Assembly (NCBI GenBank): GCA_003552075.1
Contig: PUOJ01000056.1
Span: forward strand, 1-60,455
Origin: Bacteroidales bacterium
GTDB lineage: Bacteria; Bacteroidota; Bacteroidia; Bacteroidales; UBA7960
Length of the DNA stretch: 60,455 nt
Direction: 5' to 3'
Shown here piece after piece: positions 44,148-53,093 of the stretch (the first letter of the stretch is position 1; each line of letters opens with the position of its first letter). The notes beneath the pieces are model-generated. The model saw nothing but the letters and a program-made list of their open reading frames with translations, did no database searches and had not been told where the DNA came from. The translations under genes were made by a program, and so were the position numbers.

Positions 44148-44337
44148 AAGACTCCAGATTATTAAGGTAAGCGTTGTGATTCCGGCAAAAAGGCAGTATC
44201 TTTGAATACAAGACGCTTAGCGGCAGTTTTCTGACCATATGCTCTTGCGCCATTTGTTGTACATGCAATACCTGGCTGCCGTTAATCCCTGCATGCAAAG
44301 CTACGCATCACGACAACAATTACAAAAACCCGATGTC

Positions 44338-45852
44338 ATGAAGATCCTTCAGGCTGCACAAATCCGTGAAATTGACCGTTATACCATTGAAAATGAACCC
44401 GTGGCCTCTATTGAGCTGATGGAGCGTGCAGCGAAAAAGTGTTATGAGTGGATTCGGCGACATATGAAACACAAAAGGCAGGTCCGGGTGTTTTGTGGCA
44501 TGGGCAACAATGGTGGAGATGGCCTGGTGATCGCCCGGATGCTTGCGGGCACCGGACATCAGGTCACGGTATATAAAGTACAACATACCACCACGGCTTC
44601 AGAAGATTTCACGATGAACGAAAAACGGCTTGCCGGCGTAAAAAACCTACATTATCAGACCATTCATGAGGGAGAGCCATTTCCGGAAATAGCAGATGAC
44701 GACCTGGTGATTGATGCCCTTTTGGGAAGCGGCCTTGCCAGGCCCCTTGAAGGCCTTTTGGCAGCTGTGGTGCAACACATCAATTCAGCTCGTGCCGTGG
44801 TCATTGCCATAGACTTTCCTTCAGGTCTCTTTTGTGAAGATAACAGGGAAAACAATGAAAAGCATATTATCAGGGCGGACTATACACTGACTTTCCAACT
44901 GCCTAAACTGGCATTTATGTTCGCTTCCAACGAACAGTACATTGGTTTCTGGTACCTTATCGACATTGGACTGCATCCTGATGCTATTCGCAGGGCAGAA
45001 ACCAAATACCATTATTTGCAGGCTTCCGATATCCGCAGTCTGTATCGCGGGCGAAAGCGGTTTGCGCACAAGGGGCATTTCGGACATGCATACCTGATGG
45101 CGGGCAGTTACGGAAAGACTGGTGCTGCTGTGCTGGCAGCGCGTGGAGCCATTCGCTCAGGACTTGGTCTGCTTACGGTGCAATTGCCATCCTGCGGCTA
45201 CGACGTAATTCAGACGGCCGTGCCTGAGGCCATGTGTGTACCTGATGAACAAGCGCATTTTGTATCGGAGGTGGCTGACCTGGAAGGCTTCCATGTGGTG
45301 GGCACTGGTCCGGGCATAGGAACCAATGAGCAGACCGCACGTGCACTTAAACTGCTCATTCAAAACACAGCCGTCCCCATGGTGCTGGATGCAGATGCCC
45401 TGAATATTCTGTCGGAAAACCTCACCTGGTGCGGGTTTTTACCCAAGGGATCGGTCTTTACACCCCATCCGGGGGAGCTTGACAGGCTGGCAGGAAAATC
45501 CGGTAATGACCATGACCGGCTGGATAAGGCTGTGGAACTCGCCCACCGCTTCCAGGTGCACATCGTGTTAAAAGGAGCGCATACTGTCGTGATCGCTCCT
45601 GATGGCCGCTGCTACTTTAATTCTACTGGCAATCCGGGCATGGCTACCGGAGGTAGTGGCGATGTGCTTACGGGGATGATCATTGCCTGGCTTGCGCAAA
45701 ATTATTCCACATTGCACAGCTGCCTGATGGCTGTATATCTCCACGGCAGAGCCGGAGATCTTGCTGCCAACAGGAAGGGCTACGAGGGCCTGATTGCTGG
45801 CGACATCATCGAACAGATTCCCAAGGCAACCAAGACCACCCTCCGGAAATAA
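44338..45852 (+). CDS. nnr: bifunctional NAD(P)H-hydrate epimerase / ADP-dependent dehydratase
   Basis: YjeF_N start MKILQAAQIREIDRYTIE, GMGNNGGDG, and C-terminal carbohydrate-kinase motifs (HKGHFGH, GNPGMATGGSGDVLTG). Confidence 0.9.
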   Translation: MKILQAAQIREIDRYTIENEPVASIELMERAAKKCYEWIRRHMKHKRQVRVFCGMGNNGGDGLVIARMLAGTGHQVTVYKVQHTTTASEDFTMNEKRLAGVKNLHYQTIHEGEPFPEIADDDLVIDALLGSGLARPLEGLLAAVVQHINSARAVVIAIDFPSGLFCEDNRENNEKHIIRADYTLTFQLPKLAFMFASNEQYIGFWYLIDIGLHPDAIRRAETKYHYLQASDIRSLYRGRKRFAHKGHFGHAYLMAGSYGKTGAAVLAARGAIRSGLGLLTVQLPSCGYDVIQTAVPEAMCVPDEQAHFVSEVADLEGFHVVGTGPGIGTNEQTARALKLLIQNTAVPMVLDADALNILSENLTWCGFLPKGSVFTPHPGELDRLAGKSGNDHDRLDKAVELAHRFQVHIVLKGAHTVVIAPDGRCYFNSTGNPGMATGGSGDVLTGMIIAWLAQNYSTLHSCLMAVYLHGRAGDLAANRKGYEGLIAGDIIEQIPKATKTTLRK

Positions 45853-45861
45853 CTTGCCGGA

Positions 45862-46473
45862 TTAGACGCAGAACCCCCGCACACCGAAAGGAACCTTGTC
45901 GTGGTTCGCAACTACCAGGGTTTGATCGGTTTCCCAGTTGGCATCCAGTCCGGCATTGACCCGGACACGACAAACCTTATCCAGTTCGGCTTTGGCCATC
46001 AACTTGTTTTTTTGGTAGAATGAAAATTCTGCCTCGCGTGCATAAAATGTTTCCGTTACCACAAAACGGTTGTTGATTTGCCTCCACCTGCCCCGCCGAT
46101 CAACCCGCCGCAAGGCATTAAGCTTGGGGTGCAAAACGATTTGTGACATGTTAAGCGAAGCGCCCCGGATGTCCGTGATGGACATGTGTGCCATTAAGTC
46201 CGCCCCATAACCGCCGGAAACATTTACAATACCCAGTAAACTCACCCTCCCGTGAATTTTCCTGTCATAGCTGATTGTTCCGTAAAGCATGCTGGCCTTT
46301 GACTTGGTGTAACTCCATGCACCCTGGGGCTCTTCCGTCAGGATGTCACGGCAATGACCCAAATAACGCAACTTGTCAGGGTGTAAGATGGCTCCCGGCA
46401 CATAATTTTCCAGCGATATGGCCAGAAGCCGCAATCCGGGAATGTGTCTGCTTATAAAGTGATGCAAATTCAT
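45862..46473 (-). CDS. hypothetical 203-aa beta-rich cytoplasmic protein; possible gasdermin-N-like domain (see findings)
   Basis: Clean ORF with ATG start and its own TAnnTTTG motif upstream. No signal peptide or TM helix, and no family I can name with certainty. Confidence 0.5.
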   Translation of the reverse strand: MNLHHFISRHIPGLRLLAISLENYVPGAILHPDKLRYLGHCRDILTEEPQGAWSYTKSKASMLYGTISYDRKIHGRVSLLGIVNVSGGYGADLMAHMSITDIRGASLNMSQIVLHPKLNALRRVDRRGRWRQINNRFVVTETFYAREAEFSFYQKNKLMAKAELDKVCRVRVNAGLDANWETDQTLVVANHDKVPFGVRGFCV

Positions 46474-46501
46474 TTATGTAGCACTTTTAATGTTTTCCGT
46501 A

Positions 46502-46509
46502 CAAAAATA
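46502..46509 (-). promoter_or_regulatory. candidate TAnnTTTG -7 promoter element for the 203-aa gene
   Basis: The minus strand reads TATTTTTG, 28 nt upstream of the ATG at 46473, inside a very AT-rich tract. Confidence 0.35.
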
Positions 46510-46816
46510 AAATAAAAATTATAATATAAAACTTTATTTTGTGGTCAATAGGCTTTAAAAAATAGATTAGTGGGTTTCAGCTCTTGTCTTGCACCTTGCA
46601 TGCTTTTTTGCTGCCAGGTTTTTTTTAATTTTGCATGCTGGCTTCAACCCGAATAATTCAGGCCACCTGAATCGTTGTGAAAGCCTTGCAAAAGCTTACT
46701 TTGTCGGTGTTTTTCATTGCCTGGCGTCCGACCTGAATCATGCGCATGAAACCTCCATGCAAAAGAATTGACACACAGGAGGATGATTATTGTCATGGGG
46801 GCATATAGACTAAGTA

Positions 46817-46886
46817 AGCAATTAGCTGTTGGCTATTGGCAAGAAAGCCAAAAGCTAAATGCTAAAAGCCAATAACCAATAGCAGT
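46817..46886. repeat. heptamer array (AGCNNTT/GGCTATT then AAGCYAA x5) arranged as an imperfect 16-bp inverted repeat
   Basis: The arms GCTGTTGGCTATTGGC (46825-40) and GCCAATAACCAATAGC (46868-83) are complementary at 14 of 16 positions. The 27-nt spacer is itself made of heptamers. Confidence 0.7.
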
Positions 46887-46982
46887 CTTGTTCATACCAT
46901 AAACACCAGACAGCCAATTAGTTGAAAAATTACATTCACATGAATATTGGATAAATACGTTTCAGAAACCAGTGAAATAGAT

Positions 46983-47357
46983 ATGGAAATTAGTGGCAAC
47001 ATTATCAGGATATTACCTGAAAAAAGCGGTGAAGGGCGAAACGGACCCTGGAGAAAGCAGGAGTTTATTGTGGAAACGGAAGGGCAGTATCCCAGGAAAG
47101 TCTGCATAGCAGTATGGGGGGATAAAATAGACCAGTTTGCCCTGAAGGAAGGGGAGCGGGTTACAGCCTCCGTCAATATTGAAAGCCGTGAATTTAATGA
47201 GCGTTGGTACACCGATGTAAAGGCCTGGAAGATCGAAAGGGAGGCGCAGGGCGGTGCGCTTTCTGGTGACCCGCAGAGTACCCCGCCACCCTTTGATGCG
47301 CCTCCGCCCACAGAAGAACCCCCAGGGGTGCGGGAAGAGGACGATCTGCCTTTCTGA
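46983..47357 (+). CDS. DUF3127-family OB-fold protein with a Pro-rich linker and acidic DDLPF C-terminal tip
   Basis: MEISGNIIRILPEKSGEGRNGPWRKQEFIVETEGQYPRKVCIAVWGDKIDQF...ESREFNERWYTDVKAWKIE is the typical DUF3127 pattern. I prefer the Met at 46983. Confidence 0.75.
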   Translation: MEISGNIIRILPEKSGEGRNGPWRKQEFIVETEGQYPRKVCIAVWGDKIDQFALKEGERVTASVNIESREFNERWYTDVKAWKIEREAQGGALSGDPQSTPPPFDAPPPTEEPPGVREEDDLPF

Positions 47358-50222: not shown

Positions 50223-53093
50223 ATGTTAAAAAAACATCTTGCTCTTCTGCTCTTCTGGTGCTTTGCTGTTTCCTGGCCTTCTTTAGCCACAGATGTAACC
50301 AGGGTGCGGGAAGCCATGGATGCCGGTGCCATTTTATCAGGGCATGTGATTTTTAAAATCAGCGAAGCGGCAGCTGCCAGGTCTGAAGACCCCCATTTGA
50401 TACCCCCGGGACTAAAAAAAATTATCGCCACCACAAAAGCAGGAGAACCCCATCGCGTCTTTCCGGATCACAGGCCGCCATCCGAAAGATACCATCATTC
50501 AGGCCGGCCCATGGCTGATCTCAGCCGAATATTTGAAATCGTGGTAGATGATGAAGAACAGATGTGGCAAATCATGGCCGCACTCCATGCCAGTGGACTC
50601 ACGGAGTATGTGCAGCCCCGCTATGTGCCCGGGCTCTTGAAATATGGGGGAGACCAGCAGGGCCATCATCCAAATGATTCACTTCTCAATGAGCAATACT
50701 ATCTTAAAAACATTGCTGCTTTCGAGGGCTGGAACATCACCAGGGGAGACACTTCTGTGGTGGTAGGCATTGTGGATACAGGCGTGGAGCTGGACCACCC
50801 AGACCTGGTCGATGCCATCGCATACAACTGGGATGATCCCATCAACGGAGAGGATAGTGACGGAGACGGGTATGTCGACAATTTCTATGGTTGGGATCTC
50901 GGGGAAGGCGACAATGACCCCACAGTGAACAATTCGGCGCATGGCATCCATGTCTCAGGCATAGCTGCAGCCACGCCCGACAATTATGAGGGGATTGCCG
51001 GTGTGGGCTATTATAGCCGCTTCCTTCCGGTGAAAGTTGATGATGAGCTGGGGCGGCTGACCAAAGCTTATGAAGGTATTGTGTATGCAGCGGATCAGGG
51101 CGTCGATGTGATCAATTGCTCATGGGGCAGCCATTTCAACGCGGGGCCTTTTGGCCAGGATATCATCGACTATGCGGTGTTGAACCACGATGTACTGGTG
51201 GTGGCTGCTGCCGGCAATGCAGATGATGATGTGCCGTTTTATCCTGCTTCTTTTGACCTCGTGCTGAGCGTGGCAGCCACCGACAGCCTGGATAACAAGG
51301 CCGGGTTTTCCAGTTATGGCCCTTTTGTCGATATTGCCGCCCCCGGACACCAGGTCAAGTCGACCTGGGTCAATGCTTCCTATATGCGGGGAAATGGAAC
51401 TTCCATGGCTTCGCCCGTGGTTGCCGGTGCTGCAGCCCTCTTGCGGTCACGATTCCCGGAACTGAGTGCCCTGCAGATCAAGGCGATGCTCAAAGTGACC
51501 GCAGACCCCATTGATCAGTTGGAGGAAAACCTGCCGTATGCCAGCCAGCTTGGGAATGGCCGCCTGAATATATTCCGGGCACTCACCGAAACCCACCACA
51601 GCTATATTCGAATCGCAGAACACCTGACCTCTGCGGAAGCCTTGGGCAATGTAGGGCCGGAAATGACATTCAGCCTGGAGATGTTTTTGCAAAACATGCT
51701 GGCACCACTCCAGACCCTGCGCGCCGTGCTGACCACCGATTCCGACAAGCTGAATGTGCTTACGGATACCTTGTTTTTCGACAGCATTGACAGCCTGCAG
51801 GTCTTCGATAACCGGGATGATCCATTGCTGGTTGAAACAAGCGCCGCTTTGCCGGATAGCCACCACGTGTTATTTACCCTGCATTTTTATGATGAACACG
51901 GGCAGCAAATTGGCCGCAGGTCCTTCCGGCGTGTGCTTAACCGCGACTACCTGAACGTCGAAGCTGGTCCCATCAAAACAACCTTTAGTGGTTACGGCGC
52001 TTTGGGCTTCAATTACCCGGATTATTCCCAGGGTTGGGGCTTGACTTATGAAGATGGCTACACCGTACTGCGTAACGGTGGCTTCCTGTTTGCCAACAGT
52101 GCTTCCAGGGTGGTGGACAATGTATACGGCAGTGAAGCTGGTACATTCAGTGACAAACTAATTATTGCAGACCCACCGGTATTGCATACTGATCATATGC
52201 TTGCACCTCTTGTGGTCAGTGGACGATTGCAGGACCATGATGCCAATGGAGGCCCTCCACTGGGTTTGGATATCCTTTGGCACGCTTACCTGTGGGATTA
52301 CCAGGAGCCTAAGGATTACTTCATCCTGCATTACCAGGTAATCAATCAGTCTGAACAAACCTATGAGGATTTTTATGCAGGCTTTTTTGCCGACTGGGTT
52401 TTGCGAAACAACAAGATGCATCGTGCCACCATCGACGTGTCTTCACGCATGGCCTACGCCTATTCTGATGAAGGCGGGCATTACACCGGCATTCAGCTTT
52501 TGTCAGCAGGGGGCATGCGCCACTATGCCTTCGACAATCAGGGAGCCAAAGGAAGCATGCGCATTGATGATGGTTTCAGTGACGTGGAGAAATATGCGGC
52601 ACTCACGAATAACAGACTATATGCAGGCTTTTATGATGCAGACAATGACATTTCCTCACTGATAAGCCACGGCCCAAACAGAATGCAACCGGGAGATACC
52701 CTTTCGGTCGGGTTTGCAATGCATTTTGGAGATCAGCTGCAGGATATGCGAAACCAGGCCATGGAGGCAGCTTTGTTTTACCAGGCACTGGACGACATCG
52801 AGACACAAATGCCAGATGTGTCGCATAAGCCCTGCGCTGAGCCTTTTTTGGTCTATCCCAACCCATTTCAGTCAGCCTTAACCCTTCGTTTTTGTCCGGA
52901 ACTGAAAGGCCGCTATATGGCCACCATCTATGGGCAGGATGGGAGCATCCAGGCGGCAGAACAGGTAAGGCTGACTCCAGGGCAAAAAGGTGTCATGGCC
53001 TTAGATGTGGGCCTCCTGTCGCCCGGGATGTACTTGCTTCGCCTTCACGGAAAAGGCGTGGACTACAGCCGGATCGTAATGAAGGAGCGGTAA
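50223..53093 (+). CDS. secreted S8 (subtilisin-family) serine peptidase with a T9SS C-terminal sorting domain
   Basis: Signal peptide; catalytic triad contexts VGIVDTGV (Asp), HGIHVSGIAAA (His) and GTSMASPVVAGAAALL (Ser); C-terminal CTD. Confidence 0.88.
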   Translation: MLKKHLALLLFWCFAVSWPSLATDVTRVREAMDAGAILSGHVIFKISEAAAARSEDPHLIPPGLKKIIATTKAGEPHRVFPDHRPPSERYHHSGRPMADLSRIFEIVVDDEEQMWQIMAALHASGLTEYVQPRYVPGLLKYGGDQQGHHPNDSLLNEQYYLKNIAAFEGWNITRGDTSVVVGIVDTGVELDHPDLVDAIAYNWDDPINGEDSDGDGYVDNFYGWDLGEGDNDPTVNNSAHGIHVSGIAAATPDNYEGIAGVGYYSRFLPVKVDDELGRLTKAYEGIVYAADQGVDVINCSWGSHFNAGPFGQDIIDYAVLNHDVLVVAAAGNADDDVPFYPASFDLVLSVAATDSLDNKAGFSSYGPFVDIAAPGHQVKSTWVNASYMRGNGTSMASPVVAGAAALLRSRFPELSALQIKAMLKVTADPIDQLEENLPYASQLGNGRLNIFRALTETHHSYIRIAEHLTSAEALGNVGPEMTFSLEMFLQNMLAPLQTLRAVLTTDSDKLNVLTDTLFFDSIDSLQVFDNRDDPLLVETSAALPDSHHVLFTLHFYDEHGQQIGRRSFRRVLNRDYLNVEAGPIKTTFSGYGALGFNYPDYSQGWGLTYEDGYTVLRNGGFLFANSASRVVDNVYGSEAGTFSDKLIIADPPVLHTDHMLAPLVVSGRLQDHDANGGPPLGLDILWHAYLWDYQEPKDYFILHYQVINQSEQTYEDFYAGFFADWVLRNNKMHRATIDVSSRMAYAYSDEGGHYTGIQLLSAGGMRHYAFDNQGAKGSMRIDDGFSDVEKYAALTNNRLYAGFYDADNDISSLISHGPNRMQPGDTLSVGFAMHFGDQLQDMRNQAMEAALFYQALDDIETQMPDVSHKPCAEPFLVYPNPFQSALTLRFCPELKGRYMATIYGQDGSIQAAEQVRLTPGQKGVMALDVGLLSPGMYLLRLHGKGVDYSRIVMKER
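52845..53090 (+). other. T9SS C-terminal sorting domain of the S8 peptidase
   Basis: FLVYPNPFQSALTLRF...SPGMYLLRLHGKG... pattern. Confidence 0.65.

Follow-up and report, generated by a model that had tools for sequence, protein, structure and literature searches.

The window analysed here is a stretch of 60,455 nucleotides from a Bacteroidales bacterium (contig PUOJ01000056.1 of assembly GCA_003552075.1), and the gene of interest is located on its minus strand at positions 45862-46473. The open reading frame (ORF) listing confirmed this gene, which had been proposed in a preliminary description of the stretch, with an ATG start and a product of 203 amino acids (aa). All five peptide motifs quoted there for their likeness to the pore-forming N-domain of gasdermins were found in the translation (aa 13-24, 35-50, 70-102, 134-152 and 193-203). 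The comparisons reported below place the product, as a divergent homologue of the bacterial gasdermins (bGSDMs), in an unnamed family of about 200-230 residues that is the gasdermin pore-forming core alone. In soda-lake Bacteroidales its gene is present once, is inherited vertically, has a conserved promoter of its own and is situated among housekeeping genes. Neither a signal peptide nor a transmembrane helix was detected, as claimed earlier: the N-terminus is not hydrophobic and the highest 19-residue Kyte-Doolittle mean is 1.18. The protein is basic, with 28 lysine and arginine against 18 aspartate and glutamate residues. The gene occurs once within the window, and its GC content and GC content at third codon positions (GC3) are native. 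The coding region comprises the following features, where A1 and A2 are the alignments of the close and of the broader family:

45862..46473, minus strand: coding sequence of the tail-less gasdermin-like protein, 203 aa, with the stop codon at 45862-45864 (ORF listing, AlphaFold2, Foldseek and profile matches).
46444..46467, minus strand: N-terminal basic amphipathic helix, aa 3-10 (family consensus FIRKHIPGLR), the equivalent of the gasdermin alpha1 "thumb" (DSSP helix 3-10 on the model).
46168..46275, minus strand: first stretch of period-2 hydrophobic alternation, aa 67-102, candidate hairpin or finger pair 1, conserved in A1 (37 sequences) and A2 (88 sequences).
46081..46113, minus strand: clade-specific basic patch LRRVDRRGRWR, aa 121-131, on helices between the two finger regions (A1 conservation).
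45934..46038, minus strand: second, amphipathic period-2 stretch, aa 146-180, candidate finger pair 2, conserved in A1 and A2.
45865..45897, minus strand: terminal strand KVPFGVRGFCV, aa 193-203, at which translation ends (PFGVRGF invariant in A1).

The protein had been described as an orphan. This proved wrong: 43 homologues were found at E <= 1e-3 in a 90%-clustered database, and 127 representative clusters in an exhaustive search. The 43 close homologues are nearly all exactly 203 aa long, are all unnamed or "hypothetical", and all derive from Bacteroidales metagenome-assembled genomes (MAGs). Alignment A1 holds 37 sequences of these close homologues, referred to below as the clade; it has 26 invariant columns and ends in ...PFGVRGFxV in every member. 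The exhaustive HMMER search, performed with the A1 profile against 1.84 billion representatives, returned at least 127 clusters at 50% identity (69 of them at E <= 1e-10), with members mostly of 196-232 aa, all unannotated, and the match runs to the C-terminus in nearly all 127. All but two of the longer family representatives are joined in a single BLAST network, and 88 diverse members of the broader family were aligned as A2. The family is not included in Pfam or PHROGs, and every source naming its members calls them hypothetical protein. It is therefore currently overlooked by defence-system finders and by genome annotation.

Searches with the single sequence were largely negative. In line with the earlier statement that no family could be named, a Pfam hmmscan (E <= 10) gave no significant match and no Gasdermin domain (PF04598); the only hit, to DUF538 at E 0.062, was treated as noise. 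A miss on PF04598 is expected for bacterial homologues, whose identity to mammalian gasdermins lies under 15%. No match was obtained by phmmer against the PDB, and the NCBIfam model prok_gasdermin (NF051890) scored the window protein at E 0.19 with 11.5 bits. The PADLOC bGSDM model (PDLC02986), on the other hand, matched it at E 2.5e-4, over aa 135-199 only. Scanned singly, 35 of the 37 A1 members (best E 6e-9) and 47 of the 88 A2 members (best E 3.4e-11) were matched by the PADLOC model, and 14 of the 37 clade members by prok_gasdermin (best E 2.5e-8). Every family score on the latter is far under its curated cut-off of 100 bits, which is consistent with the public name "hypothetical protein" only. 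On sequence grounds the window protein is thus classed as a bGSDM homologue, yet one outside the curated NCBIfam equivalog.

When the A2 profile was searched against the PDB, the bGSDM of Vitiosangium was matched at E 1.1e-9 (7n51_A) and 7e-10 (8sl0_A), and the Runella and Bradyrhizobium proteins more weakly. The alignment to Vitiosangium is co-linear, profile positions 8-206 lying on residues 11-220, so that it begins at Vitiosangium residue 11. The terminal strand aligns to Vitiosangium 211-220 (LVFGFKCFEI) and to IVFGVK of Runella. Of the five quoted motifs, proposed by comparison with GSDMA3 and GSDMD, only the last two (aa 134-152 and 193-203) were corroborated, by the hidden Markov model (HMM) alignments to bacterial gasdermins. 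An AlphaFold2 model built from A1 had a predicted local distance difference test (pLDDT) value of 88.4 and a predicted template modelling (pTM) score of 0.81. Its top eight Foldseek matches in the PDB were all bGSDMs (7n50, four chains of 7n52, 7n51 and the pore forms 9a84 and 8sl0), with E-values of 7e-6 to 3e-4, probability 1.0, template modelling (TM) scores of 0.43-0.55 and sequence identities of 10-17%. GSDME, TrichoGSDM (E 2.6e-3) and RCD-1 (E 1.3e-2) followed, so that the top 11 are all gasdermins.

The resemblance might be due to chance or to an unrelated beta-rich fold, the protein then being no gasdermin homologue. The weak single-sequence results (DUF538 as the sole Pfam match and an empty PDB search) and the low identity to bGSDM structures would agree with this. 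Two separately built HMM libraries nevertheless converge on bGSDMs, the PDB profile search gave a full-length co-linear alignment at about E 1e-9, the eight best structural matches are bGSDMs at probability 1.0, and non-gasdermin folds appear only at E > 0.01 and are themselves pore-formers (MACPF/astrotactin). A chance resemblance is accordingly considered extremely improbable. The proposed gasdermin N-domain fold thus stands, with profile, PDB-profile and model-based comparisons all favouring bacterial gasdermins; an unrelated beta fold, which had been named as the finding that would speak against it, was not the best match. Homology to bacterial gasdermins is regarded as secure, with hardly any doubt.

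The two candidate finger regions, each of about 35 residues with strict alternation, were read from the column-averaged hydropathy of A1 and A2. The first aligns to roughly residues 70-115 of the Vitiosangium protein. In bGSDMs the fingers are four strands of 17-18 aa each, and in Vitiosangium they form through helix-to-strand refolding (PMC10153256). The two stretches match the gasdermin membrane hairpins in size and position, which is suggestive of a retained pore-forming core as far as hydropathy can indicate it. Residues 161-167, within the second stretch, were modelled as a helix by AlphaFold2, and a helix inside an alternating stretch recalls, by analogy, the refolding in Vitiosangium. 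In the basic patch between the fingers, R122, D125, R126, R127, G128, W130 and R131 are invariant or near-invariant in A1; only W130 is widely kept in the broader family, where column 130 is W, Y or F in A2. A lipid-binding role of this patch is conjecture.

The missing C-terminal inhibitory tail, already pointed out in the preliminary description, turned out to be a family-wide trait and not a local truncation. The last residue of the family aligns with residue 220 of the 266 of Vitiosangium, and in 135 of 138 full-length members the chain continues for only 6-18 residues (median 6) beyond the PFG motif, compared with 51 in Vitiosangium. A truncation artefact or frameshift was therefore ruled out, given that these 135 relatives stop at the same point and that the stop codon lies 9 bp from the neighbouring gene nnr. 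The Vitiosangium bGSDM has an inhibitory C-terminal domain of 29 aa (238-266), and for structural alignment its pore-forming core was taken as aa 2-229 (PMC10153256). The C-terminal tails of described bGSDMs measure 17-67 aa (PMC13475620), and canonical bGSDMs become toxic when their C-terminal peptide is truncated (10.1101/2021.06.07.447441). The best TM-scores of the model were obtained with inactive crystal forms, and the closed state is therefore predicted confidently without a tail.

A second element of known bGSDMs is also absent. None of the 138 family members has a cysteine in its first 10 residues (MNLHHFISRH in the window protein), the region in which Cys3/Cys4 of bGSDMs is conserved, palmitoylated and important for toxicity and pore formation (10.1101/2021.06.07.447441; PMC10153256). 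Cys41 is present in 34 of the 37 clade members, with A, L, I or V in the same column of the broader family, and Cys168 and Cys202 are not conserved in A1. Control through a disulfide at Cys41, in the manner of TrichoGSDM, was considered and rejected on account of this column and of the three clade members without the cysteine; a TrichoGSDM-like disulfide is unlikely in this family.

The genes around the locus were identified by Pfam as 7TMR-HD, WbqC, Nnr, DUF3127, CvpA, EVE, holA, HSDR_N_2, Peptidase_S8 and CcmF. The nnr neighbour described before was confirmed: a bifunctional YjeF_N and Carb_kinase gene at 44239-45852 on the plus strand, convergent with the gasdermin-like gene. The gap of about 470 bp on the other side, described as AT-rich, measures 473 bp (46474-46946), with 36.6% GC against 48.2% for the window, and the TAnnTTTG motif reported in it is TATTTTTG. 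The flanking features are:

45853..45861, no strand: spacer of 9 bp separating the stop codon of nnr from that of the convergent gasdermin-like gene, with the same spacing in the related locus L007.
46502..46509, minus strand: putative promoter element TATTTTTG, which fits the Bacteroidota -7 consensus TAnnTTTG and lies 29-36 nt upstream of the ATG.
46474..46585, minus strand: proximal upstream region, probably a conserved promoter and 5' untranslated region, nearly identical over about 100 nt to L007 (pairwise alignment A4).

The encoded protein of L007 is 76% identical to that of the window. TAnnTTTG or the one-mismatch form GATATTTG occurs at -36 to -38 in most clade loci and in both gene orientations; the 48 matches to TAnnTTTG in the window as a whole, compared with 37 +/- 6 in shuffles, do not amount to a clear enrichment. 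The distal part of the gap (46586-46946) is poorly conserved relative to L007, and no Rfam family was found in the upstream region. On these two grounds a separate tail or small regulator encoded in the 473-bp gap was rejected. A tail encoded separately upstream was likewise discarded, the gene lying only about 100 bp from DUF3127 in most relatives, with no room for it. On the opposite side, the 9 bp between the stop codons are too few for either a terminator or a coding extension for a tail, and the search for a terminator-like hairpin there was negative.

The claim that no partner protease is present holds for adjacent and for cytoplasmic proteases, none of the latter being linked to the gene in the window or in 27 clade loci. 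It does not hold for proteases in general, since a 956-aa Peptidase_S8 subtilase is encoded 3.7 kb away (50223-53093, plus strand). This is the only protease within 8 kb, and many clade genomes preserve its synteny with the locus. A signal peptide and a C-terminal sorting domain of the type IX secretion system (T9SS) type mark it as exported; it was judged unrelated to the gasdermin-like protein and not a plausible activator, and a role as a HET-Q2-like activator was rejected for the same reason. The further claim of protease independence agrees with the lack of a linked cytoplasmic protease in the clade; it is drawn from absence, and a distant relative at locus L033 does have such a protease.

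At L033 (Bacteroidota MAG GCA_016192075.1; 8001-11636) the family member P0051, tail-less and 32% identical to the window protein, is followed after 61 bp by a 501-aa Peptidase_C25 of clan CD (caspase-fold) and then by unknown proteins of 83 and 383 aa. The peptidase scored 37 bits against a cut-off of 23, carries the motifs FFNCHGD and AAECCYG and has no signal peptide, and is thus considered cytoplasmic. P0051 is divergent from a contractile injection system cluster (sheath, tube, gp19, VgrG and Pvc16) and a LuxR-type regulator. The set could serve the injection system as a module for lysis or release, or could represent a tail-less gasdermin under protease control. The latter would fit an alternative in which the window protein is still under protease control, through an unlinked protease and/or an inhibitor in trans, with the tail moved to another protein or with internal cleavage. 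The adjoining P0051 peptidase with its His-Gly and Cys motifs supports this alternative, as does the protease linkage of 43 of 50 canonical bGSDMs (caspase-like, CHAT, trypsin-like or subtilase), the other seven having no adjacent protease (Johnson et al.). No homologue of the L033 protease was found in the window or the 27 clade loci, however; the sole nearby protease is exported, there is no tail or linker loop to cleave, and no conserved small ORF was found in the flanks. In L035, moreover, a relative of P0051 has an alpha/beta-hydrolase in place of the protease. Control by a protease or inhibitor in trans is therefore judged improbable.

A scan of one genome per GTDB species found the gene in 17 species, namely 16 "Bacteroidales bacterium" MAGs, mostly from a soda-lake sediment series, and one Cytophagales MAG. 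Clade contigs without exception have the gene next to the block DUF3127-CvpA-(EVE)-holA-HSDR_N_2-S8-CcmF, and DUF3127 is its most constant neighbour. At most clade loci it runs in the same direction as DUF3127, at about 100 bp upstream. The window, L007 and L018 have it in the opposite orientation, diverging from DUF3127 and converging with nnr. At these three loci the gene and its promoter are thus inverted relative to the DUF3127-holA block, compared with all other clade loci among L001-L026, which places a rearrangement breakpoint directly beside the gene; with its two arrangements the gasdermin-like gene behaves as an autonomous unit. Embedding in a defined metabolic operon, which the preliminary description had held to be incompatible with its proposal, was not observed: the position is fixed, the neighbours are functionally unrelated and the orientation is variable.

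The ratio of nonsynonymous to synonymous substitution rates (dN/dS) was 0.11 against L007 and 0.07 against L018, indicating purifying selection; dN itself is roughly three times as high as for the neighbouring holA. The native GC and GC3 and the conserved synteny led to the rejection of a recent horizontal acquisition and of a place in a defence island. Neither a defence-island nor a sporadic mobile distribution was seen, the gene being fixed in position in at least 17 species-level genomes. These data bear on the main rival explanation, in which a domesticated gasdermin fold fulfils a non-lethal, lineage-specific role (lipid or membrane binding, regulated release or envelope stress) in haloalkaliphilic Bacteroidales. 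A core-genome-like synteny within a housekeeping block, native base composition, strong purifying selection and the constant spacing of a consensus -7 promoter, which suggests ordinary transcription, all favour such a role, together with the loss of the cysteine whose mutation nearly abolishes the toxicity of canonical bGSDMs and the lack of a partner protease or other conflict-system genes nearby. The alternation in the finger regions, on the other hand, is kept family-wide, even over the segment modelled as a helix; distant members lie in conflict or mobile contexts (a caspase-fold protease by a contractile injection system, hydrolase cassettes and phage contigs), and no domain or neighbour points to another function. 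Domestication is on these grounds considered rather unlikely.

The explanation preferred here is that of a divergent bGSDM homologue reduced to the core, without tail, N-terminal cysteine or protease, which acts as a pore former under cleavage-independent control; as a composite it is held to be somewhat probable. The protein would be soluble in a closed state that is stable without a tail. A closed state predicted without a tail, combined with the lack of a lipid anchor, suggests an intrinsically quiescent protein that would need a non-proteolytic cue or high expression. The cue may be expression level, a trans-acting factor, or a membrane or physicochemical signal, upon which the amphipathic stretches aa 67-102 and 146-180 would refold into beta-hairpins. 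The protein would then oligomerise in the cytoplasmic membrane and permeabilise it, and the outcome would be regulated lysis or cell death without proteolytic licensing. Pore formation, independence of cleavage, the trigger and the physiological role are all inferred.

Several observations weigh against a pore former of this kind. Period-2 hydrophobicity is expected for any beta-sheet with one buried face and is not specific for hairpins. The TM-scores to bGSDM structures are moderate, and the window protein falls far below the curated NCBIfam cut-off (11.5 versus 100 bits). The stretch of about 9-17 residues that follows the last strand in the canonical active fragment (Vitiosangium 221-237) is missing along with the tail. 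Lacking the palmitoyl-cysteine that is critical for the toxicity of the Vitiosangium and Runella proteins, the family may consist of weak pore formers or none. Finally, a fixed housekeeping position with a consensus-type promoter is unusual for a suicide effector.

To our knowledge, every bacterial gasdermin characterised to date is licensed when proteolysis removes its C-terminal peptide and depends on an N-terminal palmitoyl-cysteine, and the only cases of cleavage-independent gasdermin control documented so far are from a placozoan and a fungus. The canonical bGSDMs of Runella zeae, Vitiosangium sp. and Bradyrhizobium tropiciagri (Johnson et al. 2022 and 2024; 7N50/7N51/7N52, 8SL0 and 9A84) have the same fold and a co-linear core, comprising the alpha1 helix, the twisted beta-sheet, the two finger regions and the terminal xFGx strand, and like the present family they have no large eukaryotic repressor domain. 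In contrast to them, this family has neither an inhibitory peptide, its chain ending about 46 residues earlier than that of Vitiosangium, nor a palmitoylatable N-terminal cysteine. The clade gene, furthermore, has no adjacent caspase-like, CHAT or other cytoplasmic protease, and is vertically inherited at a fixed housekeeping locus outside defence islands.

Proteins that consist of the gasdermin N-domain only and act independently of cleavage are known in eukaryotes (PMC13475620). TrichoGSDM of Trichoplax adhaerens (8JYV/8JYW) and RCD-1 of Neurospora crassa (8JYZ) are likewise pore-forming domains alone, with no inhibitor in cis and no protease, but they are eukaryotic and about 250 aa long. 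TrichoGSDM is kept inactive by an intermolecular disulfide, whereas no conserved regulatory disulfide is evident in this family; RCD-1 requires two antagonistic alleles, whereas only one copy is present in this window. It is possible, and put forward tentatively, that the clade protein corresponds in prokaryotes to TrichoGSDM and RCD-1, as a gasdermin of the core genome that is independent of cleavage, has neither cis inhibitor nor lipid anchor, is transcribed from an ordinary promoter and responds to a non-proteolytic cue such as membrane state, an ionic or pH shift, or a partner protein. The bGSDM-like proteins of Gammaproteobacteria fused to an immunoglobulin-like (Ig-like) domain also combine a gasdermin-like domain with the lack of an encoded protease (Johnson et al. 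2024, PMC10153256, Extended Data Fig. 9). They carry a C-terminal Ig-like beta-sandwich, a cytolysin-like membrane-recognition domain, and were proposed to be toxin-like (PMC10153256), whereas members of the family described here end with the core, carry no signal peptide and are cytoplasmic. A possible functional analogy is offered by phage holins and other small pore formers of lysis or abortive infection, in which membrane permeabilisation is governed by expression or timing and not by proteolysis; one of the family's subgroups is carried by phages. Holins, however, are alpha-helical integral membrane proteins with no structural or sequence relation to this family, and its phage copies are not beside an endolysin.

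No description of prokaryotic gasdermins without tail, cysteine and protease was found in the limited full-text literature searched. If the clade protein is the prokaryotic equivalent of TrichoGSDM and RCD-1, the wider family of at least 127 clusters, with its phage-borne copies and its cassettes containing lipase-like hydrolases or a caspase-fold protease, would form a second branch of bacterial gasdermins that has so far gone unrecognised, and such a tail-less branch might be near the ancestral state that preceded systems of tail plus protease. Stably inherited among housekeeping genes in one lineage, the family would demonstrate that bacteria have a further means of keeping gasdermin-type pore formers under control. 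It provides small test proteins of about 200 aa for the minimal gasdermin pore-forming unit, and bears on how a tail-less gasdermin stays soluble and on gasdermin roles outside anti-phage suicide.

The contexts of distant family members differ from those of the clade and look conflict-related or mobile. At L035 (143-9004) a relative 68% identical to P0051 is flanked by a DUF900 alpha/beta-hydrolase and by a conserved unknown protein in common with L033, and a 1945-aa ORF without a Pfam domain lies 20 bp upstream. P0100 is paired with an LCAT/PGAP1-like alpha/beta-hydrolase in L037-L039 (L037 6586-8657, L038 6586-9793) with differing flanks, and this pair resembles a mobile cassette. The hydrolases of the two subgroups are cytoplasmic and lipase-like and are not similar to each other by BLAST. 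For the C25 protease, the DUF900 and LCAT hydrolases and the shared 383/415-aa ORF, searches of the window and the clade loci gave no homologue.

The subgroup of P0154 and P0168 (224-234 aa) is found on phage-like contigs, one of which is a 91.6-kb IMG/VR genome. The loci are L032 10001-10687 (IMGVR_UViG_3300005077_000010) and L030 8001-8705; a Cas4-like exonuclease and a dCMP deaminase are adjacent, and the genes lie in the replication and nucleotide-metabolism region with no recognisable endolysin beside them. The P0154 and P0168 proteins are not represented in PHROGs, the INPHARED phages or BFVD. A phage origin of the clade was rejected, since it had no match in INPHARED, BFVD or PHROGs and IMG/VR scans with the clade and two other subgroup alignments were empty, only P0168/P0154 being viral. 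A metagenome scan for the family returned two loci.

Some further observations concern single genes and sites. Transcripts of nnr and of the gasdermin-like gene probably read antisense into each other, and this could dampen the expression of either. A second conserved upstream block, in common with L007 (GCATGCAAAATTA...GCAGCAAAA), is located at approximately 46560-46610 on the minus strand, roughly 90-135 nt before the ATG, and could be a binding site for a regulator. The DUF3127 neighbour (46947-47357, plus strand) gave a hit at E 1e-21 to PHROG 4932 ("single strand DNA binding protein"), and its C-terminus, EEDDLPF, is an acidic tip of the type seen in single-stranded-DNA-binding proteins; by sequence it looks like such a protein. 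A giant protein of 2473 aa (P0064) matches positions 43-87 of the family profile in 20 separate stretches (E 2e-25 overall), which may be a repeat built from the gasdermin-like hairpin segment or a compositional artefact.

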